A stretch of DNA of 24,000 bases, from assembly GCF_000934745.1 (NCBI RefSeq), contig NZ_JYNO01000004.1, positions 262,035 through 286,034 of the forward strand. Direction: 5' to 3'. The position numbers and the translations under genes were made by a program. Source of the stretch: Desulfonatronum thioautotrophicum (lineage in GTDB: Bacteria > Desulfobacterota > Desulfovibrionia > Desulfovibrionales > Desulfonatronaceae). The notes below the pieces were generated by a model that saw only the letters and a program-made list of their open reading frames with translations, had not been told where the DNA came from and searched no databases. Shown piece after piece: positions 2,737 to 23,807 of the stretch (its first letter is position 1; each line of letters begins with the position of its first letter).

Positions 2737-3153
2737 TCAGATCATGAAGGGGTTGTGCAGACGCATTCCGTCAATTACCTGGTCGTGTTGCAGATCTTCC
2801 GTGAACAGGGTTTTCGCACCGCCGGACAAGGCTGCTTCAATGATCATCGCATCCCAGAACGATAAGTGCATGTATCGGCTACGGGAAATTCCTTTGAGGA
2901 TCAGCGCGGCATCGTTGGCAATCACCGGCAGGGAGGCAAGACCGTTCACAATTTCCGCGGCGGTTTGCTCATCCAATGGCCGTGCAAGTTTGCGGGTCAC
3001 GGTCACATAGAACTCCTGCATGACTTGCGCACTGACAATGGTCCTGCCAGCCAGGGTTTCCGCCTGGAACAACTCCCGGGCCAGGGTGCGTTTGGCCGGG
3101 GCATCCCTGTCGAACATATATACCAGGACATTGGTGTCAAAAAAAGAACGCAT
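2737..3153 (-). CDS. vapC: PIN-domain ribonuclease toxin VapC
   Basis: 138 aa. The N-terminus FFDTNVLVY carries the first PIN acidic residue. Later acidic residues are present (MQEF, FWDAMII, TEDL). A small upstream partner gene sits 5 nt away. Confidence 0.85.
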   Translation of the reverse strand: MRSFFDTNVLVYMFDRDAPAKRTLARELFQAETLAGRTIVSAQVMQEFYVTVTRKLARPLDEQTAAEIVNGLASLPVIANDAALILKGISRSRYMHLSFWDAMIIEAALSGGAKTLFTEDLQHDQVIDGMRLHNPFMI

Positions 3154-3413: not shown

Positions 3414-3660
3414 TGCCCGGCCTCCAGCTTGTTCTTCTGTTGTCGCGTTACCCTGAATCAGTGTAGCACGAGGGAAAGGGTGAATCAAGCACACGGGATG
3501 CTCGTATAGGGCGCAATTTCATTGTAAATTGGTAGACACTATTTCCAGCAGACGATTCATTTTGACTCTAGATGCCCTTGGACTGTTGTCTCCTCCGGGT
3601 ATCCCAATGGGATTTCGTGCCACCCAGCATTGGTGGACCATGTAGATGGAGAGAGTAAAA

Positions 3661-4389
3661 ATGATCGACCTTCTTTTTTGGCCTGTAATCCTGTTTCTGA
3701 CCATGATCGCCGGAACCATAGGTGGCGCGGTCGGTTTTGGCTCGGCGGTAATCTTGCTGCCTGTTTGTTCCTTTGTCTTTGGTCCTGAAGCGGCAGTGCC
3801 GATTCTGACACTGGCCGCGCTGATCGGCAACCTGTCACGCGCGGCTTTTTCCTGGTCCGAGATCAATTGGCCCATTGTGACGCTCTATTGTCTGGGTGCC
3901 GTGCCCATGGCGGCGCTCGGGGGGATGGTGTTTGTGGCCCTTGATCAGGAGGCGTTGCAGCGGATCCTGGGTCTGTTCATTCTCGCGATGTTGCCCTTGC
4001 GACGCTGGTCTGCACGCCATGGGATCGTGCCGAAGCAATGGCATTTTCTGCCTCTCGGCGCGGGCATGGGCTTTCTGTCGGGCGTGGTGGGGACTGTGGG
4101 GCCGATCAACGCGCCCTTTTTCCTGGCTTATGGTCTGGTGAAAGGTGCATATCTGGCCACCGAGGCACTGGGGGCCGCAGCGGTCCACTTGACAAAATCA
4201 GGAGTCTACGGGCGCTTTGCAGCGATTGACGTTACCGTGCTGACGTACGGGTTGGTTATCGGCGCAACGCTCATTTTCGGGTCATGGGCGGGTAAGCGGC
4301 TGATCGTAGGGTTGGAAACGCAACGCTTTATCGGCGTCGTCGAGGTGTTTCTGGTGGTCGCGGCATTGCTGATGATCATCGGTTTCTGA
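3661..4389 (+). CDS. TSUP-family (TauE/SafE, DUF81) anion permease
   Basis: Polytopic membrane protein with the typical G-rich TSUP helices (GTIGGAVGFGSAVILLP; GFLSGVVGTVGPI). I prefer the ATG at 3661, which is preceded by GGAGAGAG, over 3646. Confidence 0.8.
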   Translation: MIDLLFWPVILFLTMIAGTIGGAVGFGSAVILLPVCSFVFGPEAAVPILTLAALIGNLSRAAFSWSEINWPIVTLYCLGAVPMAALGGMVFVALDQEALQRILGLFILAMLPLRRWSARHGIVPKQWHFLPLGAGMGFLSGVVGTVGPINAPFFLAYGLVKGAYLATEALGAAAVHLTKSGVYGRFAAIDVTVLTYGLVIGATLIFGSWAGKRLIVGLETQRFIGVVEVFLVVAALLMIIGF

Positions 4390-9203: not shown

Positions 9204-10313
9204 ATGGTTTCCGTGGATGAGTCACTTTGCTTGATGCCACTCCTTATGACCTCCACTCCTGATGAAGACTACGCCGTTCGGCTCTCGCCCGGCGCTTCCT
9301 TTTCCATTCCATCCACAGCCAAGGTTCTCGACTCCGTCCAGCTGGCGGAATTGGAGCGGACGTTTCGGACCTGGGCAACCGAATCAGCAAGACAGGATGT
9401 TCGGGCGTCCAGACAACGCATTTTGCTGATATTCCTTCTGATTCGACATTCAGGCGCGAAGCTGAACGAGGTCTTGGAACTCAGGTTCGGGGACATTGAT
9501 CTGGAGAAGCGGGTCGTCATTTTGGCCGGCGAGGACAAGGAGAAGGGCAGGACCGTTGAAATTCCGGACGATCTGGCAGAGGAGCTTCGCACGGCCTTGA
9601 GTCAGGGCGCACATGCTCCGGATGACGCCCTGTTTCGAATCGATCCGGCCCATGTCCGGCGCAAGTTCTATGAGCAGGCCGAGGCCTGCGGCCTGCCACG
9701 GGACTTTGGCAATCCCAGTACGTTGCGCCGATCCCGCTCCGTGGAATTGTTGCGCGGCAACCTGCCTCTGCCTGTGGTCCAGCGGCTGCTGGGCCACTCC
9801 ACGCCCAATCTCACGGCCGCGCACCTGGAGGTTTCCGAGGAGGACGTTCATCATGCCGCGAGACAGTACGTGGACCGGGAAAGCAGCAGACGCACCAGCG
9901 CCCGGAACATTTTCTTCGGCAAGATCGTCGAAATGAACAAGGGTGACATCCAGTCCGAGGTGATTCTGCAGACCCTTGGTGACCTACGGATCACCTCCGT
10001 CATCACCAATACCAGCCTCAAGCGGATGCGCCTGAAGATCGGTACCTTTGCCACCGCTGAGATCAAGGCGCCCTGGGTGCTCATCGCCGGATCAGTGGAT
10101 GCGGCAGAGAACAGCGCGGAGAATCGCCTGCCTGGAGTGGTGATGGCGGTCAACGCGGGTAAGGTGAACGTGGAAGTTTTAGTGCGCCTTTCCGAAGGCA
10201 CGGAGATCTGCGCGGTGGTCACCGCTACCGGATTCCATCGTCTGAAATTGAAGGTGAATGATCCGGTTTGGACGCTTTTTGGGGCGTATTCCGTGATTCT
10301 TAATCGAGAGTGA
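9204..10313 (+). CDS. tunR: TunR-family tungstate/molybdate-responsive regulator (degenerate tyrosine-recombinase domain plus 2 x Mop/TOBE)
   Basis: The central region aligns by eye with the XerD catalytic domain (NPSTLRRSRSVELLRGNLPLPVVQRLLGHSTPNLTAAHLEV vs [41 protein letters not shown]), with Tyr replaced by His. The C-terminus has two Mop repeats beginning SARN and SAEN. It sits next to modBAC and the TSUP genes. The start codon is uncertain (9204, 9234 or 9246). Confidence 0.8.
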   Translation: MVSVDESLCLMPLLMTSTPDEDYAVRLSPGASFSIPSTAKVLDSVQLAELERTFRTWATESARQDVRASRQRILLIFLLIRHSGAKLNEVLELRFGDIDLEKRVVILAGEDKEKGRTVEIPDDLAEELRTALSQGAHAPDDALFRIDPAHVRRKFYEQAEACGLPRDFGNPSTLRRSRSVELLRGNLPLPVVQRLLGHSTPNLTAAHLEVSEEDVHHAARQYVDRESSRRTSARNIFFGKIVEMNKGDIQSEVILQTLGDLRITSVITNTSLKRMRLKIGTFATAEIKAPWVLIAGSVDAAENSAENRLPGVVMAVNAGKVNVEVLVRLSEGTEICAVVTATGFHRLKLKVNDPVWTLFGAYSVILNRE

Positions 10314-15343: not shown

Positions 15344-15631
15344 ATGTCGCGAGAAACACCTGGAAACGCTCCCTCCGCGGGCGCTCATCCCCGGGAATGG
15401 GAATTTGACGAAGAATTCGACGGCGGAGAGGAGACATGCGGACGGGTGATCATCAACCTCTACACCTACCTGCTGCCCATGCCTCCGGGAACCAGGGTGA
15501 TGCTCATTTCCCAGGATCCGGCCGCGCCCATCGAGTTTCCGGCCTGGTGCCGCATGACCAGGAATACCCTTCTGGACATGCGCCACCCCTATTATCTCAT
15601 TGAATACAAACCCGAACAGAAAAAGGAGTGA
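15344..15631 (+). CDS. TusA/SirA-like sulfur-carrier protein (variant Cys motif)
   Basis: Start at the ATG at 15344, after GGGAGAGG. The segment FDGGEETCGRVIINLYTYLLPMPPGTRVMLISQDPAAPIEFPAWCRMT parallels E. coli TusA [45 protein letters not shown]. The motif is CGRV instead of CPxP. Confidence 0.7.
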   Translation: MSRETPGNAPSAGAHPREWEFDEEFDGGEETCGRVIINLYTYLLPMPPGTRVMLISQDPAAPIEFPAWCRMTRNTLLDMRHPYYLIEYKPEQKKE

Positions 15632-15635
15632 TTCC

Positions 15636-16001
15636 ATGGCAAACAGATTCTGCGTAACCATCAGCCACTGCCGCACCGACGGCGACAAGGCCACCCTGGG
15701 CTTCGTTGTGGCCAATGCCGCCCAAGGCAGCGAAAAGGAAACCATGATCTTTCTGAGCACGGACGGCGTGTACTGCGCGGTCAAGGGAGAGGCGGAAAAG
15801 ATCGATGAAGGCGCACCCTTTGCCCCGCTCAAGGAACTGATCACCAAGTTCGTCAATGCCGGTGGGAAAATCTATGTCTGCACACCCTGTCTGAAAAAAC
15901 GCGGCCTGTCCGAGGCCGATTTGATCGAGGGCTCGGTCCCGGCCGGCGGTGCGGCGTTGGTGGAATGGCTGTCCGCGGATCCGGCCTGCGTGGCGTATTG
16001 A
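15636..16001 (+). CDS. DsrE/DsrF-like family protein with VCTPC motif
   Basis: ATG at 15636, preceded by AAGGAG (15623-15628). 121 aa. DsrE-fold pattern (FVVANAAQG..MIFLSTDGV..GGKIYVCTPCLKKRGL). Confidence 0.7.
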   Translation: MANRFCVTISHCRTDGDKATLGFVVANAAQGSEKETMIFLSTDGVYCAVKGEAEKIDEGAPFAPLKELITKFVNAGGKIYVCTPCLKKRGLSEADLIEGSVPAGGAALVEWLSADPACVAY

Positions 16002-16014
16002 GCCGGAAGGTAGA

Positions 16015-16098
16015 GTTCAGAAGTCAGAATTCAGAATTCAGAATTCAGGAGTCAGAAGTCAGAAGACAGAATACAGGAGACTGGAGATAGGAGACAGG
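16015..16098. repeat. About twelve tandem degenerate heptanucleotide units (A-N-T/A-C-A-G-A/G)
   Basis: GTTCAGA AGTCAGA ATTCAGA ATTCAGA ATTCAGG AGTCAGA AGTCAGA AGACAGA ATACAGG AGACTGG AGATAGG AGACAGG. The array is intergenic and starts 14 nt after the DsrE-like stop. Confidence 0.9.
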
Positions 16099-16230
16099 GG
16101 ATGGAATGCGCTGGCGTTTCGTTGTCTGTGGGGGGCTGGGGGGGAGTGGGTGCGGCGCTGGGTGCTATTCCACGCGAAGCGCTCGTCCTCTCCGGCCTTT
16201 CATCAAGAATTCCATGGAGGAGTGATTTGC

Positions 16231-16998
16231 ATGTCTGCAATCGATGACCAGGTTGACCTGGCCGGGCTTCAGCCCGCGCGGATCTTTGATGGCGGCGATC
16301 TGGACTGCGGGTCCGGGTTGATTCTCCTGATCCGGGAAAACATGCTCCAGACAGGGGTTGGGGAGATTCTGGAAATGCGCAGTCGGGAGCCCACGGTCAA
16401 CGACGACCTGCCGCCCTGGTGCCGGATGGCCGGGCACGTGTATCTGGGCCGTTTGGAGGGACCGGGATATGCCCGCTATTTCCTGCGCCGGGGGGAGCCC
16501 AAGGCTGATCAGCCCACTCCTTCCGACGACCAGGCTTTGGCCGAGGACAAGAAAAAGGCCACTGAGTACGAGTGGCGGATGCGGATTCGGTCCACGGGCA
16601 ACCTGAAGAGTACGGTCTATTGTCGGAACTTTTCCTGGGACTTGGGGCAGCCGGCCAGCTTCAAGGACAAGGATGCCCACCCCTGCGCCGTGGAAGCCTT
16701 GCTGGGTGCCCTGGGTGGGGCGTTGAGCAGCGGTTTTGCCACGGATTGCGCCCGGGAGGGGCTGGAGGTGGATGATGTGGAGATCACGGTCCGCGGCAGG
16801 CTGCGCAACATTCTGGCGCACATGGGCCTGGAAGAGGGTGATCCGTCTTTCGCGGGCATTGAGGTGAAATGCTTCGCTTCGACCATGGACGACGAAGCCA
16901 AGGTTCGTGCGGTCTGGAGCCAAACCGTGGCCCGCTCGCCCATTGCGGCCACGCTGGCCAAGGCGGTAGATTTGAACATCAAATTCGCGGTGGTGTGA
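16231..16998 (+). CDS. TusA-like / OsmC-like fusion protein
   Basis: ATG at 16231, after GGAGGAG. The N-terminal module (FDGGDLDCGSGLILLIRENMLQTGVGEILEMRSREPTVNDDLPPWCRMAG) is paralogous to the gene at 15344. The C-terminal 150 aa have the OsmC/Ohr-fold pattern (HPCAVEALLGALGGALSSGF ... VARSPIAATL). Confidence 0.7.
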   Translation: MSAIDDQVDLAGLQPARIFDGGDLDCGSGLILLIRENMLQTGVGEILEMRSREPTVNDDLPPWCRMAGHVYLGRLEGPGYARYFLRRGEPKADQPTPSDDQALAEDKKKATEYEWRMRIRSTGNLKSTVYCRNFSWDLGQPASFKDKDAHPCAVEALLGALGGALSSGFATDCAREGLEVDDVEITVRGRLRNILAHMGLEEGDPSFAGIEVKCFASTMDDEAKVRAVWSQTVARSPIAATLAKAVDLNIKFAVV

Positions 16999-17000
16999 TC

Positions 17001-18188
17001 ATGTTTACGACAACCCAGGTCGGCAGCTGGCCCCGGTCCCAAACCATGCTCAAGGCCTTGCGCGACCGTCGCCTGGAGCGGATGTCCCAGGCCGAGTTCA
17101 ACGCCGTGGCCGACGAGGAGGTCCGACGTACCGTGCGCATCCAGGAGGAGGCCGGCCTGGACATTGTGGTGGACGGTGAACATCGCCGGGATAACTTCTA
17201 CTCCTTTATCACGGAAAAGGTGTCCGGAACCAGGCTGATGAGTCTGGCCGAGATGCTGGACGAGGTGGAGGACAAGTCCGGGTTCGAGGAGTTGTTGAGT
17301 ACGCTGGACGTACCGGCCTCGGCCATCCGCAACCCCACCTGCGTGGGGCGGCTGGAGCGGCGCGAGCCCCTGGCCGTGGATGATTTGCGGTTCGTGAAGC
17401 AGCTTACGGACAAGCCGGTGAAGATCACCCTGCCCGGGCCCTACCTGCTCAGCCGGTCCATGTGGGTACCCAATTATACCAAGAGCGCCTACCGCGACCA
17501 AGGCGAGCTGGGCGACGACGTTGTGCGCATCCTGAGGGACGAACTGCTGGAACTGGCCGAGGCCGGTTGTGAATTCGTGCAGTTCGACGAGCCGGTGCTC
17601 ACGGAAGTGGTCATGTCCGCGGAGTGCGGCCGGCGAACCTTCATGTGAGCGACTCTGGCCACCCGCCGGGATGTGGGTGTTGAACTGGAGTACGCCGCGG
17701 AACTGATCAATCGGGTCATCGACGGCATTGCCGCCCCGCCAAGGGGACCGCGCATCGGTCTGCATATTTGCCGGGGCAACTGGAGCACCCGGGAGGATGT
17801 CCTGCTTACCGGAGATTATACCCCCTTGCTGCCGGCCTTGACCCGGATGCGGGTGCATCAATTCGTGTTGGAATATGCCACGCCGCGGGCCGGAGAGATC
17901 GCCGTGGTCGGGGAAGCCCTGTCCGGGGCCGTTCCCGGGACGGACCGCCCGCGGGAACTGGGTCTGGGCGTGGTCAACCCCCGGACCACGGAAGCCGAAT
18001 CCCCCGAGGAGATCGTGGCCAAGGCCGAGCTGGCCCTGCGCCACTACCGCCCGGAACAAGTGTTCCTGAACACGGATTGCGGCTTCGGCTGCTTCGCCAA
18101 CCGCTGCGTGAACGTGGAGGAGGTGGCCACGGACAAGATCCGGAACATTGTTCTGGCGGCCAGGATGCTCCGGGAGCGGCATGGCTGA
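17001..18188 (+). CDS. MetE-like (cobalamin-independent methionine synthase catalytic-domain family) Zn methyltransferase with in-frame TGA at 17646-17648 (candidate Sec216; alternatively a pseudogene)
   Basis: Two same-frame ORFs (..17648 and 17673..) are separated only by the TGA and 8 sense codons. Upstream of the TGA are the motifs GSWPR, VVDGEHRR and VQFDEPVL. Downstream are Zn-site-like LHICRGN, LEYATP and NTDCGFG. The start ATG at 17001 lies 2 nt after the preceding stop. Confidence 0.6.
17652..17691 (+). promoter_or_regulatory. SECIS-like bipartite RNA hairpin immediately 3' of the in-frame UGA
   Basis: Lower stem 17652-17658 pairs with 17685-17691 (7 bp including 2 G-U). There is an asymmetric internal loop. 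Upper stem 17660-17666 pairs with 17673-17679 (7 bp including 1 G-U). The apical loop is CGGGAU. The hairpin starts 4 nt after the UGA and the loop starts 18 nt after it. Confidence 0.4.
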
Positions 18189-19377
18189 ACCGTTTCCGCG
18201 GCGGCCTGAGCTGGAGCGGACGGCACGGGAGGTCAATGCCGGATGTACCGGTTGCCGGATCTGTGTCCGCCAGTGCGCCTTTCTGAAAATGAATGCGCCT
18301 CCCGGGCGGATAGCCCAGGCCCTGCTGACCGGGGCCGGTCGAACCGACCCGTTTGCCTGCAGTCTGTGCGGCCTGTGCGGGGCGCTTTGTCCGGAAATGG
18401 TCAAACCCGGAAATATGTTCCTGGAAATGCGCCGAGAAGCGGTGGACCAAGGCCGTGTGGACTGGAAACGGTACAAGGCGATTCTGAATTATGAACGGCG
18501 CGGGCATTCCGCGCTATTCAGCTGGTATCCAACCAGGTCGAGCAAAAACGTCTTTTTCCCCGGCTGCACCCTGCCGGGGACTCGGCCGCGGATCACCTGG
18601 CAGTTTTTCGAGGCATTGCGATCCCTGTATCCGGACATGGCCATGGTCCTGGATTGCTGCCACAAGCCGTCCCATGATCTGGGGCGGCAGTCCTTTTTTC
18701 TTGAACGGTTTCAGGGCATCCAAGACCGCCTGCTGGCCCTGGGCGTAAAGCGGCTCTTCGTGGCCTGTCCCAACTGCCATAAAGTTTTCAAGCAATACGG
18801 AGGCGGGCAGGAGGTCGTCACCGTCTATGAGGCCCTGGCCCAAGGCCGGTATCACGTCCAGGGCCAGGAAGCGGTGCACCAGGATTTCGCAATCTCTCCG
18901 GATACATCCGTGCAGGTCGCCATCCATGATCCGTGCCCGTTACGGGACGAGCCGAAAACCCATGAGGCCGTTCGAGCCCTGCTCTCCACCCGCGGGTTTG
19001 CCCTTCGCGAAATGAAGAACAGCCGGACCCGCACCCTGTGCTGCGGCGAGGGAGGGTCCGTCGGCTTCCACACCCCGGCCCTGGCCACGACCTGGGCCAA
19101 AAAGCGGCGCGCCCAGAGCCAGGTCAGGGGCCAGTCCCAGGGCCATAGTCGGGATCAGTCCCAAGGCCAGAACCGTTCCCAGGCCCAGGCCGACCGGGTT
19201 GTCACCTACTGCGCCGGTTGCACCGCCTGCCTCAATCGCTTCATGCCCACCAGCCATCTGGGTGATCTGCTTTTTGATCCGAATAGCACCCTGGCCGGAA
19301 AGAACAGACCAGCCAAGGCTCCCATCACCTATCTAAACCGGTTGCTGTTCAAGCGGCGGCTGAAAAGATTTTCCTGA
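18181..19377 (+). CDS. HdrD/GlpC-like Fe-S oxidoreductase (2 x [4Fe-4S] ferredoxin motifs plus 2 x CCG domains)
   Basis: Ferredoxin-type motifs CTGCRICVRQC and CSLCGLCGALCP are present. CCG-type motifs are present (FFPGCTLPG, LDCCHKP, CPNCHKVF; IHDPCPLRD, LCCGEGGS, YCAGCTACL). The ATG at 18181 overlaps the MetE-like stop (ATGGCTGA). Contains an SQ/GQ-rich insertion. Confidence 0.85.
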   Translation: MAEPFPRRPELERTAREVNAGCTGCRICVRQCAFLKMNAPPGRIAQALLTGAGRTDPFACSLCGLCGALCPEMVKPGNMFLEMRREAVDQGRVDWKRYKAILNYERRGHSALFSWYPTRSSKNVFFPGCTLPGTRPRITWQFFEALRSLYPDMAMVLDCCHKPSHDLGRQSFFLERFQGIQDRLLALGVKRLFVACPNCHKVFKQYGGGQEVVTVYEALAQGRYHVQGQEAVHQDFAISPDTSVQVAIHDPCPLRDEPKTHEAVRALLSTRGFALREMKNSRTRTLCCGEGGSVGFHTPALATTWAKKRRAQSQVRGQSQGHSRDQSQGQNRSQAQADRVVTYCAGCTACLNRFMPTSHLGDLLFDPNSTLAGKNRPAKAPITYLNRLLFKRRLKRFS

Positions 19378-19655: not shown

Positions 19656-20201
19656 ATGCTGAAGAATCAAGCGCAGGTACAGTTGGAAAACACGAAAAAT
19701 CCGAGCGAACAGGACCAATCCAAGGAGTCGGCCATGACCCGCGGCGATTTTCTCAAGCTTGCCGGGGCCGGGGGGTTGGGAATGGCGGCCATGATGGGCA
19801 TGAGCAGTCCGGTCATGGCCGGAGAGGGCAAGAAAGGCAAATACCTTTTCGTCGTCAGTGCCGGTTCCAAGGATCCGGACAAGGCCATGCTGGCCTTGCT
19901 GCTGGCTGACGTGGTGCAGAAGCAGGAACTGGGAGACGTGCACATCTATCTGTGGGGTGACGGGGCGGAACTCTCCAAGATCGGACGCCCGGAACGCATT
20001 ACTTCGGCCAGTTTTCACCGACTGGGCAATGCGCTTGGCATGCTGGAACGGCTGCAGCGCAACGGGGCGCAGATTGGAGTGTGTCCGCCCTGCGCGGAGT
20101 GGGTCGGGGCCGTGGACGATCAGAAGTATGAGTGGGCGAACAGAGAAGACGGTGGTGTGCTCTTGCGCAGCATGCAGGAATCCTGGACAGCCTGGCTCTA
20201 G
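19656..20201 (+). CDS. Exported DsrE-like protein with CPPC motif and degenerate Tat-like signal
   Basis: Signal region MTRGDFLKLAGAGGLGMAAMMGMSSPVMA-GE, followed by a DsrE-fold pattern (KYLFVVSAGSKDP..HIYLWGDGA..IGVCPPCAEW). Both ATG 19656 and ATG 19734 have AAGGAG-type RBSs, so the start is uncertain. Confidence 0.7.
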   Translation: MLKNQAQVQLENTKNPSEQDQSKESAMTRGDFLKLAGAGGLGMAAMMGMSSPVMAGEGKKGKYLFVVSAGSKDPDKAMLALLLADVVQKQELGDVHIYLWGDGAELSKIGRPERITSASFHRLGNALGMLERLQRNGAQIGVCPPCAEWVGAVDDQKYEWANREDGGVLLRSMQESWTAWL

Positions 20202-20270: not shown

Positions 20271-20588
20271 ATGCGACTGATCAAATCGATTCTGCTCACA
20301 ATATTGACCCTTTTCGTTCTCTCCACGGCGCTGCCATTGGCCGCGACGGCGGAGAAGACCCCGGAGGTCAATACTCGGGGTGCCTGCCTGAACGTCAGGG
20401 AGTTTGTGGCCCTGATCCAGCATGAAAGCCGGCGCATGGAAAGCGGCAACATCCTGCGGCTGATCGCCGACATTCCCAACGAGGTCGAGGCCCGGGAAGC
20501 CATTGAGACCGTCGGTTATCCCATCATGGAAGAGACTCGGGACGATGATCGTGACTTTATAAACTTTCTGCTTGAGGTCCGGAAATGA
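20271..20588 (+). CDS. Small exported hypothetical protein (single Cys)
   Basis: The ATG at 20271 lies 6 nt after GGAG. Signal peptide MRLIKSILLTILTLFVLSTALPLAATA-EK. The stop overlaps the next start (ATGA at 20585-20588). I recognise no family. Confidence 0.55.
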   Translation: MRLIKSILLTILTLFVLSTALPLAATAEKTPEVNTRGACLNVREFVALIQHESRRMESGNILRLIADIPNEVEAREAIETVGYPIMEETRDDDRDFINFLLEVRK

Positions 20589-22312
20589 GCCGAGCATGGC
20601 AAGCGGTGCGTCCGCTGCTGTTGCCTCTTTTGGTGTTCATCGTCGTGTTCGTCGGGCATATGCTTTTCTATAAGATTGTATCCCAGAATTCTAGCCCGAT
20701 CTGGTGGCGACTGTATGTTCTGACCCAGACCTACATGATCAGCTTTTCCCTGGCCCTGGCCTTTGCTTTTGGAGCCTACGCCCTGGGCAAGGCCAGAGGT
20801 CAGTCAGGAAAGGCGGTGGCCGGCAGCGCGGGAGTCGCACTGCTGGTCTGGTTCACCAGCGCCTGTGGCGCGCCGCTGATCGCCGTGGGCCTCGGGTTGG
20901 TGGGCGTCGGTTTTGGGTCTGAGGCTCTGCCGCCCTGGGTTACAGCGGTGCTGACCATCTGCTTCATTTCCTTTGGAGTTTATTGGCTGCATCGCAAAGG
21001 GGGGGCCTGTGCCACGGCCTGCGCGGCCAAGGCTGGGGAGAATGCCGGTTTATTCCGTGAAATCGGGGTGGACCTGGACAAGTTCGGCGCGCAGCAATGC
21101 GTCACCGGCGAACTCTATGAGCGGACCTTCGCGGCCCAGCAAAATCGCCCGGCGGGCATGGCCTACTTCGATGAAATGGCCGGAGACATCTACGGTGCCC
21201 GGATGCGCGAGATTATCGCGGCCAAGAAGGAAGGCCGCGTCGTGGTGGGCAACTTTTGTGTTTTCGTCCCCGAAGAACTCACCCTGGCCGTAGACGGCAT
21301 CTCCGTGGGCCTGTGCGCGGGCTCTCAAGCTCCGGTTTCGGATGCGGAAAAGGTTCTGCCTCGAAACATCTGTCCCCTGGTCAAGTCAGCGTATGGCTAC
21401 GCCCTGACCAAGTCATCGCCCTATTTTCAGGTTGTGGATTTTGTCTGTGGTGAAACAACCTGCGACGCGAAGAAGAAGACCTGGGAGCTGATGGACCGGG
21501 AGATCCCCACCCATGTAATGGAAATTCCCCAGATGAAACGGGAGCGGGATCGTGATCTCTGGCTGGCGGAGGTCAAGGAGTTCAAGGCCAAGCTGGAACA
21601 GCAAAGCGGCAAGACCATTACACCCGAGGCTCTGTCCAAGGCCGTGGCGGTAATGGACGCCAAGCGAGGCTCCCTGCAACGCCTCAATGCCCTGCGTCAC
21701 CACCGTCCCTCCCCCATCAGCGGCCGGGACGCCTTGTTGGTGGAACAGATCGCCTTTTACGACGATCCGGTCCGGTTTACGGAAAAGGTCAACGTGCTTT
21801 GCGACGAACTGGACAAGCGGGTTCAGGACGGCGTCTTCGCCGCACCGTCCCAGTCTCGGCGGATCATGATTTCCGGTTCACCCATGGCCCTGCCCAATTG
21901 GAAGGTGCACAATATCGTGGAGGGTGCCGGGGCCGTGGTGGTCAACGAGGAGTCCTGTGTCGGCACCCGGTACTTCAGCCAGAATGTCGCCCAGAGCGAT
22001 GAGGACATGGATAGTATGTTGTTGGCTCTGACCGAGCGGTACATGCAGATAAATTGCGCCTGCTTCACGCCCAATGAGGGGCGAATCGAGCAGATCATCC
22101 GAGAGTACCGCGACTCCAGAGCGGACGGGCTGATTCATTACAGCCTGCAATTCTGTCACACCTATCTGATCGAGGCAGTGCGGATCAAGGAGGCCTGCGC
22201 CAAGGAGAGCATCCCTTTTCTGGCCGTGGAAACGGATTATTCCACCGAGGACACGGGTCAGTTGCAAACCAGGATCGAAGCGTTCCTGGAACAGATTGGA
22301 GGTCAACGATGA
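20585..22312 (+). CDS. Membrane-anchored HgdB/BcrC/BadD-family (2-hydroxyacyl-CoA dehydratase D-component / double-cubane-cluster-type) protein
   Basis: 575 aa. Residues 1-140 form four predicted TM helices: basic N-terminus, KARGQSGK loop, HRKGG after TM4. The remainder carries the HGD-D family Cys pattern (GNFCVFVPEE, GLCAGSQ, NICPLVKS, FVCGETTCDAKKK, EESCVGTR, INCACF, LQFCHTY). Confidence 0.85.
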   Translation: MSRAWQAVRPLLLPLLVFIVVFVGHMLFYKIVSQNSSPIWWRLYVLTQTYMISFSLALAFAFGAYALGKARGQSGKAVAGSAGVALLVWFTSACGAPLIAVGLGLVGVGFGSEALPPWVTAVLTICFISFGVYWLHRKGGACATACAAKAGENAGLFREIGVDLDKFGAQQCVTGELYERTFAAQQNRPAGMAYFDEMAGDIYGARMREIIAAKKEGRVVVGNFCVFVPEELTLAVDGISVGLCAGSQAPVSDAEKVLPRNICPLVKSAYGYALTKSSPYFQVVDFVCGETTCDAKKKTWELMDREIPTHVMEIPQMKRERDRDLWLAEVKEFKAKLEQQSGKTITPEALSKAVAVMDAKRGSLQRLNALRHHRPSPISGRDALLVEQIAFYDDPVRFTEKVNVLCDELDKRVQDGVFAAPSQSRRIMISGSPMALPNWKVHNIVEGAGAVVVNEESCVGTRYFSQNVAQSDEDMDSMLLALTERYMQINCACFTPNEGRIEQIIREYRDSRADGLIHYSLQFCHTYLIEAVRIKEACAKESIPFLAVETDYSTEDTGQLQTRIEAFLEQIGGQR

Positions 22313-22866: not shown

Positions 22867-23024
22867 CTGTTGGGGAATATTGGCCCACCAACTCGAACAC
22901 CGTGACCACGGGGCGGTCGCCAGATAGTATGGATCGCCCCGTTTTCATGGAGATGTTTTTCAGCATTCACCCTCCATTTCTGTTCAATAACCGAGAAAAT
23001 CATGAACGAGCAAAAGGCGTCCAG

Positions 23025-23807
23025 ATGATCGCAAGCCCTGGAAATGTTGCTGGAATCGACATTGGTTCCCGGTCCATCGAGCTGGTTGTTCTGAGTCATG
23101 CCGGGAGGGTCGAGCATCAGGTCAGGGTTCCGACCACCTTTGATCCCTTGCGCCAATGCCGCGAGATCCTTGAGGGGGTGGCGGTGGAATGGGTCACGGC
23201 CACGGGATATGGCCGCAAGCTGTTCGTGGAGAGCGGTATCGCGGAGGCGTGCGGGGCGATTACCGAGATTCAGGCCTATGCCCTGGGTACGGCGGGATTG
23301 TTCCCCGAGGCGCGCACCGTCCTGGACATTGGCGGCCAGGATACCAAGGTCATTTCCCTCGGATCTGGGGGCCGGGTGCTGAAGTTCGAGATGAACGACC
23401 GCTGTGCCGCGGGAACGGGCAAATTTCTGGAGATCATGGCCACGTCGCTGCAGATCCCCATCGAGGAGTTTGGCGATTTCTCCCTGGGTTCGACGAAGCA
23501 GGTGCGCATCAGCAGCATGTGTACCGTATTTGCCGAGTCCGAGGCCACGTCCCTGATGGGCCGGGGCGAGCGACCGGAAAATATCGCCATGGGCCTGCAT
23601 TTGGCCATCGTGGAGCGCACCATGGCCATGCTCAACCGGGTCGGCCTGGAGCATCCTTTATGCTTTGCCGGAGGCGTGGCCCACAACCGTTGCGTGGTCA
23701 AGCTGCTGCAGGAGCGGATTGAGGAGACGATCATCGTTCCGGAACGACCGGACATGGTCGGCGCACTGGGTGCGGCCATGCACGGCGCACTGCGGCGGAA
23801 TACGTAA
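23025..23807 (+). CDS. HgdC/BcrAD-type ATP-dependent activase (CoA-substrate-specific enzyme activase family)
   Basis: ASKHA-fold motifs GIDIGSRSIE, ATGYGR, EIQAYALG and DIGGQDTK are present. Cluster-bridging region MNDRCAAGTGKFLE. Also SSMCTVFAESEATSL. 260 aa from the ATG at 23025. Confidence 0.9.
   Translation: MIASPGNVAGIDIGSRSIELVVLSHAGRVEHQVRVPTTFDPLRQCREILEGVAVEWVTATGYGRKLFVESGIAEACGAITEIQAYALGTAGLFPEARTVLDIGGQDTKVISLGSGGRVLKFEMNDRCAAGTGKFLEIMATSLQIPIEEFGDFSLGSTKQVRISSMCTVFAESEATSLMGRGERPENIAMGLHLAIVERTMAMLNRVGLEHPLCFAGGVAHNRCVVKLLQERIEETIIVPERPDMVGALGAAMHGALRRNT

Follow-up and report, generated by a model that had tools for sequence, protein, structure and literature searches.

A probable selenoprotein family of MetE-like proteins, marked by an in-frame TGA and a SECIS-like hairpin, in Desulfonatronum thioautotrophicum and other bacteria

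A gene resembling the catalytic domain of the B12-independent methionine synthase MetE, interrupted by a single in-frame TGA at codon 216, has been analyzed in a 24,000-nucleotide stretch of Desulfonatronum thioautotrophicum (hereafter the window; contig NZ_JYNO01000004.1 of assembly GCF_000934745.1, positions 262,035 to 286,034 of the forward strand; features are collected in Table 1 in window coordinates). Very probably this TGA is a selenocysteine (Sec) codon, the hairpin that follows it is a bacterial Sec insertion sequence (SECIS), and the frames on its two sides make up one protein of 395 residues carrying Sec216. Comparison with its relatives shows that the codon stands in place of an invariant Cys, that the hairpin is under selection as RNA and that the downstream half is translated; we infer the incorporation of selenium itself. 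The product is almost certainly, as judged from sequence, a bacterial selenoprotein with a SECIS of standard type and a fold unusual for a selenoprotein, absent from the published catalogue of 119 families discussed below.

A search over 5.8 billion proteins gave 4543 relatives. The best 120 of these have been analyzed; they are full-length (356-421 amino acids, aa) and 54-68% identical to the joined protein over 99-100% of its length. In 119 of the 120, the column of codon 216 holds Cys, never Trp, within an invariant F-M-C-A that forms part of the longer motif R-T-F-M-C-A-[AT]-L-A-[AT]-R; the lone exception, P0001, has an 18-nt deletion there, not a substitution. The DNA pattern T-F-M-TGA-A-x-L-A-x-R was also scanned through one genome for each of 185,579 species, and TGA was found at codon 216 in at least 118 orthologues, one per species (118 of the 120 matches listed were true orthologues). 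These read QFDEPVLTE...RRTFM-TGA-ATLATRRDAG.EL.YAAEL; about 220 codons precede the TGA and about 167 follow it. Among the matches listed, the hosts represent more than 12 phyla, being drawn from Desulfobacterota, Planctomycetota, Verrucomicrobiota, Acidobacteriota, Bacteroidota, Chloroflexota, Gemmatimonadota, Armatimonadota, Calditrichia, Eisenbacteria, Krumholzibacteriia, Latescibacterota, Myxococcota and Gammaproteobacteria, and they include the cultured Desulfopila aestuarii DSM 18488 and Desulfobulbus alkaliphilus DSM 24258. The TAA/TAG version of the pattern, run on a far larger metagenome collection, returned 13 matches and no orthologue; the TGA count and this control come from different collections. 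The in-frame UGA is thus aligned with Cys or Sec in homologues, as in known selenoproteins, and the column is not that of a split or decayed gene, the outcome that would have told against the sequence-only reading in which a selenoprotein was first proposed here.

Sec and Cys forms interleave in a neighbor-joining tree, with 35 Cys forms nested inside the Sec clade, and a single origin of the Sec forms was rejected for that reason. Given this nesting, and Sec/Cys orthologue pairs that are up to 84% identical, the two forms appear to have been exchanged repeatedly. Among 1.84 billion cluster representatives searched, the motif [ST]-F-M-C-[AG] reaches relatives that are only about 40% identical. 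The family, labelled 'methionine synthase II', has 142 representatives at 50% clustering with E ≤ 1e-30. A distant, low-GC subfamily (33-40% identical; L128:513-1700, L129:4001-5194 and L130:2131-3324) reads N-S-F-Y-TGA-G-A-L-S, with the TGA in the same column; it has a mini-hairpin, GUCA-AGGU-UGAC, and a 113-aa DsrE-like gene (C-G-I-C) just upstream. One of its members, P0146, is on record with Trp at this position, the result of a TGA=Trp translation. The exceptional P0001 (L001:7-1140, JGI 3300056996) is 89% identical to the Acidobacteriota Sec forms and lacks exactly the 18 nt for R-T-F-M-U-A, despite which its gene retains the SECIS core ACCCGCCGTGATGCGGGT; the presumed catalytic residue has either been lost naturally or is missing through an artefact of assembly.

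The RNA that follows the UGA folds, over 17640-17700, with a minimum free energy of -25.7 kcal/mol. It had been described from the window as a bipartite hairpin, and so it folds there, but only part of this is shared by the family: across orthologues 89.6% of the cells of the upper stem-loop are paired, while the lower stem, at 59.5%, is not conserved and is specific to this window. An alignment of 119 Sec-form sequences, on which the stated structure was scored directly, has a core stem ACCCGC/GCGGGU with the loop CGKGAY, starting 12 nt after the UGA, and all 118 TGA orthologues have a hairpin at this distance. Each of the six core pairs is retained by 86-100% of the sequences, and a seventh pair covaries (CG 37, UA 15, UG 6, GU 5, AU 2), with a covariation score that none of 500 shuffles reached. 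In Bacteroidota the hairpin stands in the same place with another sequence, CCGGUC-AGAUGCA-GAC.CGG. The clearest signal comes from the silent sites. Third-position entropy within the stem is 0.17 bits at Thr+5, 0.36 at Arg+6, 0.31 at Ala+9 and 0.70 at Gly+10, against 1.60 at Ala+1, 1.58 at Thr+2, 1.68 at Leu+3, 1.83 at Ala+4 and 1.90 at Ala+16 outside it, and the loop codon Arg+7 is only ever CGG or CGU; silent sites frozen in the stem and free beyond it mark the hairpin, on this comparative evidence, as one selected as RNA. Each of the 119 Sec forms reaches a folding energy of -8.2 kcal/mol or better in a 39-nt stretch (mean -14.2), and three of four Cys-form genes fold at -3.1 to -6.7 kcal/mol, the fourth in another register. 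The stem is seen to shape the protein sequence too: at +9/+10, where its 3' arm is encoded, the Sec forms carry A/V-G, and at +9 the Cys forms mostly carry Pro.

The geometry is that of known bacterial elements. The apical loop begins 18 nt from the UGA, within the 16-37 nt that we take to be the range of the bSECISearch model, and in the Escherichia coli fdhF element an upper stem-loop at a distance of 11 nt from the UGA suffices. With genes carrying a SECIS of the fdhF type, the present family shares an in-frame UGA aligned with Cys, an intragenic stem-loop from 12 nt after the UGA of which only the upper part is conserved, G/U at loop positions 2-3 (CGKGAY), and stem codons that constrain the protein (A/V-G at +9/+10 in Sec forms only); it differs in protein family, and its SECIS role is predicted from sequence. 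Recruitment of SelB with Sec-tRNA(Sec) by a SECIS is the established bacterial mechanism, and here the core hairpin would recruit that complex to a ribosome that has paused 12 nt upstream, at the UGA.

Some results weigh against the Sec reading. Taken alone, the window hairpin has z = -2.0, with equally good folds in 7 of 200 shuffles, so the single-sequence fold is suggestive, not decisive; that the hairpin is more than chance follows from the 118 orthologues and not from the fold of the window. RNAalifold, applied to the 119-sequence alignment, returned a trivial consensus without the hairpin, and Rfam gave no match on the window at the gathering threshold (at E ≤ 10 on 17620-17740, only a chance DnaX match appeared). 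Most stem pairs are invariant, and true compensatory changes are consequently few: those at the seventh pair, a single change from C-G to A-U in L067, and the variant seen in Bacteroidota. Finally, no tRNA-Sec was detected in the window or its 8-kb extension (L122).

The TGA could instead be a true stop in a naturally split gene, whose products of 215 aa and, from the GTG at 17673, about 171 aa would assemble into one barrel. Gene callers do report pieces of 215 and 171 aa, and that GTG, the next possible start, lies only eight sense codons beyond the TGA. Those eight codons (A-T-L-A-T-R-R-D), however, are among the most conserved of the family and run continuously with those of the Cys forms; there is no Shine-Dalgarno-like sequence at normal spacing before the GTG, and neither terminator nor promoter was found between the halves. 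Since codon +9 is Ala in 92% of orthologues (Val in 8 of 118), no start is conserved there. The stop, moreover, is always TGA and never TAA or TAG, its column is Cys in uninterrupted relatives, and the hairpin is frozen with SECIS geometry, all of which makes a split gene most improbable. Reading of the UGA without selenium, whether by near-cognate Trp or Cys decoding helped by the hairpin or through a variant code, is also very unlikely, although one gene caller did translate the distant P0146 with Trp. TGA serves as the stop of all five consecutive local genes (15344-19377, + strand), including the MetE-like gene itself; the hosts are spread over more than 12 phyla that use the ordinary code 11; and the residue in the relatives is Cys, not Trp. 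In L110 (Desulfobulbus sp. JTS-AC307) a tRNA-SeC with anticodon TCA (2933-3028) stands beside the cassette, 30 nt upstream of its TusA-like gene, and the 12-nt spacing and G/U-containing loop presumably fit a SelB-type element such as that of fdhF.

A nonsense mutation in a decaying gene, or a sequencing error, is the usual cause of an in-frame stop when only one sequence is at hand. Here the same TGA recurs in at least 118 species, and the identical 121 nt around it are present in two independent assemblies of the locus, SRR29904084 and SRR29904085, which disposes of the read error that the sequence-only reading had allowed for. No further stops or frameshifts occur downstream, and the ratio of nonsynonymous to synonymous rates (dN/dS) lies at 0.07-0.24 upstream of the TGA and at 0.08-0.20 downstream (nine pairwise comparisons, with one upstream value lacking where dS was saturated). 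Purifying selection is thus as strong beyond the UGA as ahead of it, by which measure the downstream half is translated; the probability of a pseudogene or an error is negligible.

The Sec reading restores a complete protein. The two open reading frames do lie in one frame, of which the TGA is the sole interruption, and their joined product of 395 aa matches Pfam Meth_synt_2 (PF01717) from end to end, as expected of the MetE-catalytic-domain-like protein that had been proposed: residues 2-387 cover positions 1-322 of the 324 of the profile (E 4.9e-30), with a score of 105.4 bits against a cut-off of 21. The motifs are placed as had been noted. S9, E60 and D196, before the TGA, align with GSFP, GE and DEP of Thermotoga maritima MetE, and their counterparts Ser433, Glu484 and Asp599 in MetE and MesD are residues that, in MetE, hold the amino-acid end of homocysteine (PMC7857596). 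The four ligands of a MetE-type zinc site all come after it, and in 102 aligned sequences these ligands (H255, C257, E291, C360) and the S9/E60/D196 triad are invariant. With the homocysteine-binding residues on one side of the TGA and the zinc ligands on the other, neither half should be functional alone, as had also been argued. This is not a canonical two-domain MetE: there is a single domain, Meth_synt_1 scores 19.5 bits, below its cut-off, and TIGR01371 and NF003556 each give 97 bits, against cut-offs of 930 and 541. The NCBIfam methionine-synthase equivalogs (PRK04326, PRK09121, PRK00957 and PRK01207) gave no score above cut-off, the best NCBIfam methionine-synthase score being that of NF003317 (165 bits against 406). 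A further Cys, at -7 from the Sec, is present in 72 of the 118 Sec forms, and none of the 120 Cys forms has a Cys in any of the 12 preceding columns; this restriction to Sec forms suggests a selenenylsulfide couple.

Table 1. Features of the MetE-like gene and its neighbors (window coordinates)
Feature	Position	Strand	Remarks
TusA-like gene	15344-15631	+	95 aa; first cassette gene; Pfam TusA E 2.4e-4, below cut-off; also called as a gene in L122
DsrE-like gene	15636-16001	+	121 aa; C-[TS]-P-C motif; Pfam DsrE E 3.9e-16
TusA-like/OsmC-like fusion gene	16231-16998	+	255 aa; Pfam OsmC E 1e-9, TusA E 6e-4
MetE-catalytic-domain-like gene	17001-18188	+	395 sense codons; ATG 17001; own stop TGA 18186-18188
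S9 (GSWPR), E60 (DGEHRR), D196 (FDEP)	17025-17588	+	upstream of TGA
Cys209	17625-17627	+	seven residues before Sec216 (C-x6-U); candidate selenenylsulfide partner
In-frame TGA, codon 216	17646-17648	+	predicted Sec codon; motif R-R-T-F-M-U-A-T-L-A-T-R
Lower stem ACUCUGG/CUGGAGU	17652-17658 with 17685-17691	+	part of extended hairpin 17649-17698
Conserved core of predicted SECIS	17660-17679	+	upper stem CACCCGC/GUGGGUG (17660-17666 with 17673-17679)
Apical loop CGGGAU	17667-17672	+	begins 18 nt after UGA
H255-I-C257	17763-17771	+	two of four MetE-type zinc ligands; downstream of TGA
E291 (LEYATP)	17871-17873	+	zinc ligand; downstream of TGA
C360 (DCGFG)	18078-18080	+	zinc ligand; downstream of TGA
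CCG / 4Fe-4S dicluster protein gene	18181-19377	+	398 aa; Pfam CCG and Fer4_17

The MetE-like gene is the last of a cassette that runs, on one strand, through a TusA-like gene, a DsrE-like gene and a TusA/OsmC fusion, and that recurs in 57 of the 66 orthologous loci with at least 2.5 kb of upstream sequence. Pfam agrees with the families first assigned to the flanking genes (TusA, weakly; DsrE; TusA plus OsmC; CCG/4Fe-4S). The accompanying claim that all of these have Sec-containing members holds for DsrE-like, OsmC-like and Fe-S-oxidoreductase-like proteins, which are in the inventory of PMC13188914, but not for TusA, which is absent there. The TusA-like protein has Cys in E-T-C-G-R and in P-A-W-C-R, the latter conserved as P-x-W-C-R, and a homologue stands on the same strand in 83 Sec-form loci, at a median offset of -1922 nt from the TGA. 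The DsrE-like gene, also on the same strand, is found in 91 such loci (median offset -1613 nt), with both Cys of its C-[TS]-P-C present in all 63 copies scored, and the TusA/OsmC fusion in 104. No in-frame TGA was seen at the conserved Cys positions of the TusA-like and DsrE-like cassette genes.

The MetE-like ATG lies 2 nt after the stop of the TusA/OsmC fusion, and the ATG of the CCG protein overlaps the MetE-like stop (ATGGCTGA); the last three junctions, 2 nt apart or overlapping, suggest a single translationally coupled operon. The similarity of the CCG protein to NCBIfam NF045663, 'diclust_near_Sec', covers the C-terminal part of that model and scores below cut-off (E 1.3e-52); the protein recurs in only one of about 118 orthologous loci (L110, 38% identity); by this distribution its gene is a local addition outside the conserved cassette. 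In L110, genes for a CCG Fe-S protein, a rhodanese and a MauE/DoxX protein lie upstream on the opposite strand, with a LysR regulator downstream. No riboswitch or T-box was detected in 18 orthologous loci, and de novo clustering of neighbors gave no further widely conserved gene, a LysR-type gene being present in eight loci.

A second cassette consists of genes for an OsmC-like protein, an acyl-CoA dehydrogenase (ACAD) of the Rv1679 family, a protein of the Rv1680 family resembling substrate-binding proteins (SBP-like), and the MetE-like protein. It holds most of the Cys forms of Verrucomicrobiota, Chloroflexota and other lineages (L124, L125, L127, L144 and L145). Its SBP-like protein also resembles the binding protein TIGR04553 of a 'putative selenate ABC transporter'. 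Both gene sets occur together in L071 and L119, L035 has the TusA set with an SBP-like gene, and the Cys form P0002 sits in a DsrE plus TusA/OsmC cassette. The OsmC-like protein of the Cys-form cassette L127 matches 100 Sec-form loci, and by these matches all cassette types have the OsmC-like protein as a shared partner. No literature was found on Rv1679-Rv1681, nor any joining TusA, DsrE, OsmC and methionine synthase.

The position of residue 216 has been considered in an AlphaFold2 model of P0002, a Cys form 66% identical to the window protein (mean predicted local distance difference test score, pLDDT, 88.9; predicted TM-score 0.91). Its best structural match is T. maritima MetE (Foldseek E 3e-22, TM 0.75 on the query), and no solved structure is closer than MetE, at about 22% identity. 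Residue 216 belongs to an excursion that follows the D-E-P strand (192-196) and precedes the H-x-C strand (253-257). With pLDDT of 57-70 over residues 201-220, this loop is modeled at low confidence and is probably mobile; from the topology of the barrel, it would lie on the catalytic face, next to the strand bearing zinc ligands.

By its conserved residues, the protein is a single-domain ('core') MetE-like zinc enzyme. Because the zinc site and the Ser/Glu/Asp triad are intact, the most likely chemistry is activation, on the zinc, of a homocysteine-like amino acid through its thiol or selenol; the protein has neither a folate domain nor a corrinoid partner. Sec216 could then be a mobile catalytic nucleophile or redox residue, exchanging sulfane sulfur or a Se-S bond with the carriers encoded upstream (the TusA-like protein, the DsrE-like protein with its C-x-P-C, and the TusA/OsmC fusion), and in most Sec forms Cys209 would resolve the Se-S bond. 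Such an exchange is a tentative suggestion, rather less probable than otherwise. Two points speak against it: the case for a catalytic role of Sec216 is drawn from gene neighborhood and loop position only, and the OsmC-like partner in the Cys-form L127 has no Cys at all, which disfavors a simple thiol relay through the OsmC-like protein. A more specific proposal, which we regard as doubtful, is that of a new class of core MetE-like enzymes in which a persulfide or selenenylsulfide would join C-S or C-Se chemistry at a zinc-bound homocysteine-like substrate, the Sec or Cys being loaded by the TusA/DsrE/OsmC relay or, in aerobes, by the ACAD/SBP-like pair. If true, this would add to sulfur/selenium amino-acid metabolism a route not yet described and would provide the first selenoenzyme with the MetE/UroD barrel fold.

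With MetE's C-terminal catalytic domain (T. maritima, PDB 3BQ6/1XDJ), the window protein shares the fold, the His-x-Cys/Glu/Cys zinc ligands and the Ser/Glu/Asp triad, but it is only about 22% identical, lacks a folate-binding domain at the N terminus and stays well short of each NCBIfam methionine-synthase cut-off. Across the R-T-F-M-[C/U]-A segment, between the D-E-P and H-x-C strands, MetE gives no alignment and shows no equivalent residue. MesA-MesD, the core folate-independent methionine synthases (Price et al. 2021, PMC7857596), are likewise single-domain MetE-like proteins of 300-400 aa that retain the zinc and homocysteine-binding residues and rely on partner proteins encoded nearby. 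Judged by their descriptions, they are set apart by those partners, which here are TusA-like, DsrE-like and OsmC-like proteins or the Rv1679-type ACAD and Rv1680-type SBP-like proteins, with no corrinoid protein and no MesX/DUF1852; a catalytic Cys/Sec loop is not described for any of the four families. The upstream genes belong to the families of the TusA/DsrE sulfur-relay proteins and keep their Cys (the TusA-type Cys and the DsrE C-x-x-C). In contrast to the DsrE-like and OsmC-like selenoprotein families, the cassette members are always Cys forms, with the Sec placed in the MetE-like enzyme, and the cassette OsmC-like domain matches the 'OsmC-related (seleno)protein' model with an E of 2e-4 only.

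An inventory of May 2026 lists 119 prokaryotic selenoprotein families, some known only from GenBank annotation, and most known selenoproteins are thioredoxin-fold redox proteins (PMC13188914). No entry for PF01717, MetE, methionine synthase or homocysteine was found in that inventory, its Table 1 included, in keeping with the earlier impression that no MetE-like selenoprotein family was known. The main text of the BSepDB paper mentions no such family, NCBIfam release 20 and Rfam contain no model covering it, and no literature was found on a Sec-containing B12-independent methionine synthase; public clusters carry generic names such as 'methionine synthase II family protein'. Two preprints, one on an mlp cluster and one on code expansion in deltaproteobacteria, proved unrelated. 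There is a small chance that the family has already been described in literature outside that covered here.

Sec in a zinc alkyl-transfer barrel would widen the chemistry linked to selenium, and the Sec/Cys column would mark a catalytic residue of the large, uncharacterized 'methionine synthase II' family. At least 118 species have genes that are now called as two fragments or as pseudogenes, which a Sec-flagged family model would correct. Both cassette types, TusA-DsrE-OsmC and OsmC-ACAD-SBP-like, name concrete candidate partners, the latter being built from families that NCBI names after Rv1679 and Rv1680 of Mycobacterium tuberculosis.

Several other genes of the window deserve mention. At 19656-20201 (+) lies a gene for a 181-aa DsrE-like protein (Pfam E 8.8e-5) whose N-terminal stretch is like an export signal (GDFLKLAGAGGLGMAAMMGMSSPVMA); none of the orthologous loci has a counterpart. 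A protein encoded at 20585-22312 (+) combines a 2-hydroxyacyl-CoA dehydratase D-component (HGD-D) domain (E 2e-120) with an apparently membrane-spanning N-terminal region of about 220 aa; it is followed by a BcrAD/BadFG-type activase (22902-23807, +), with another HGD-D gene immediately outside the window (L122:17819-18988). An XdhC/CoxI-family maturation protein (107-1177, - strand) and a TauE/SafE sulfite-exporter family protein (3646-4389, +) may be relevant to sulfur or molybdenum metabolism; in other genomes no linkage of their genes to the cassette is seen. The open reading frame at 9204-10313 (+) is unusual in joining a phage-integrase domain (E 4.8e-13) to two C-terminal TOBE domains (E 1.4e-24).

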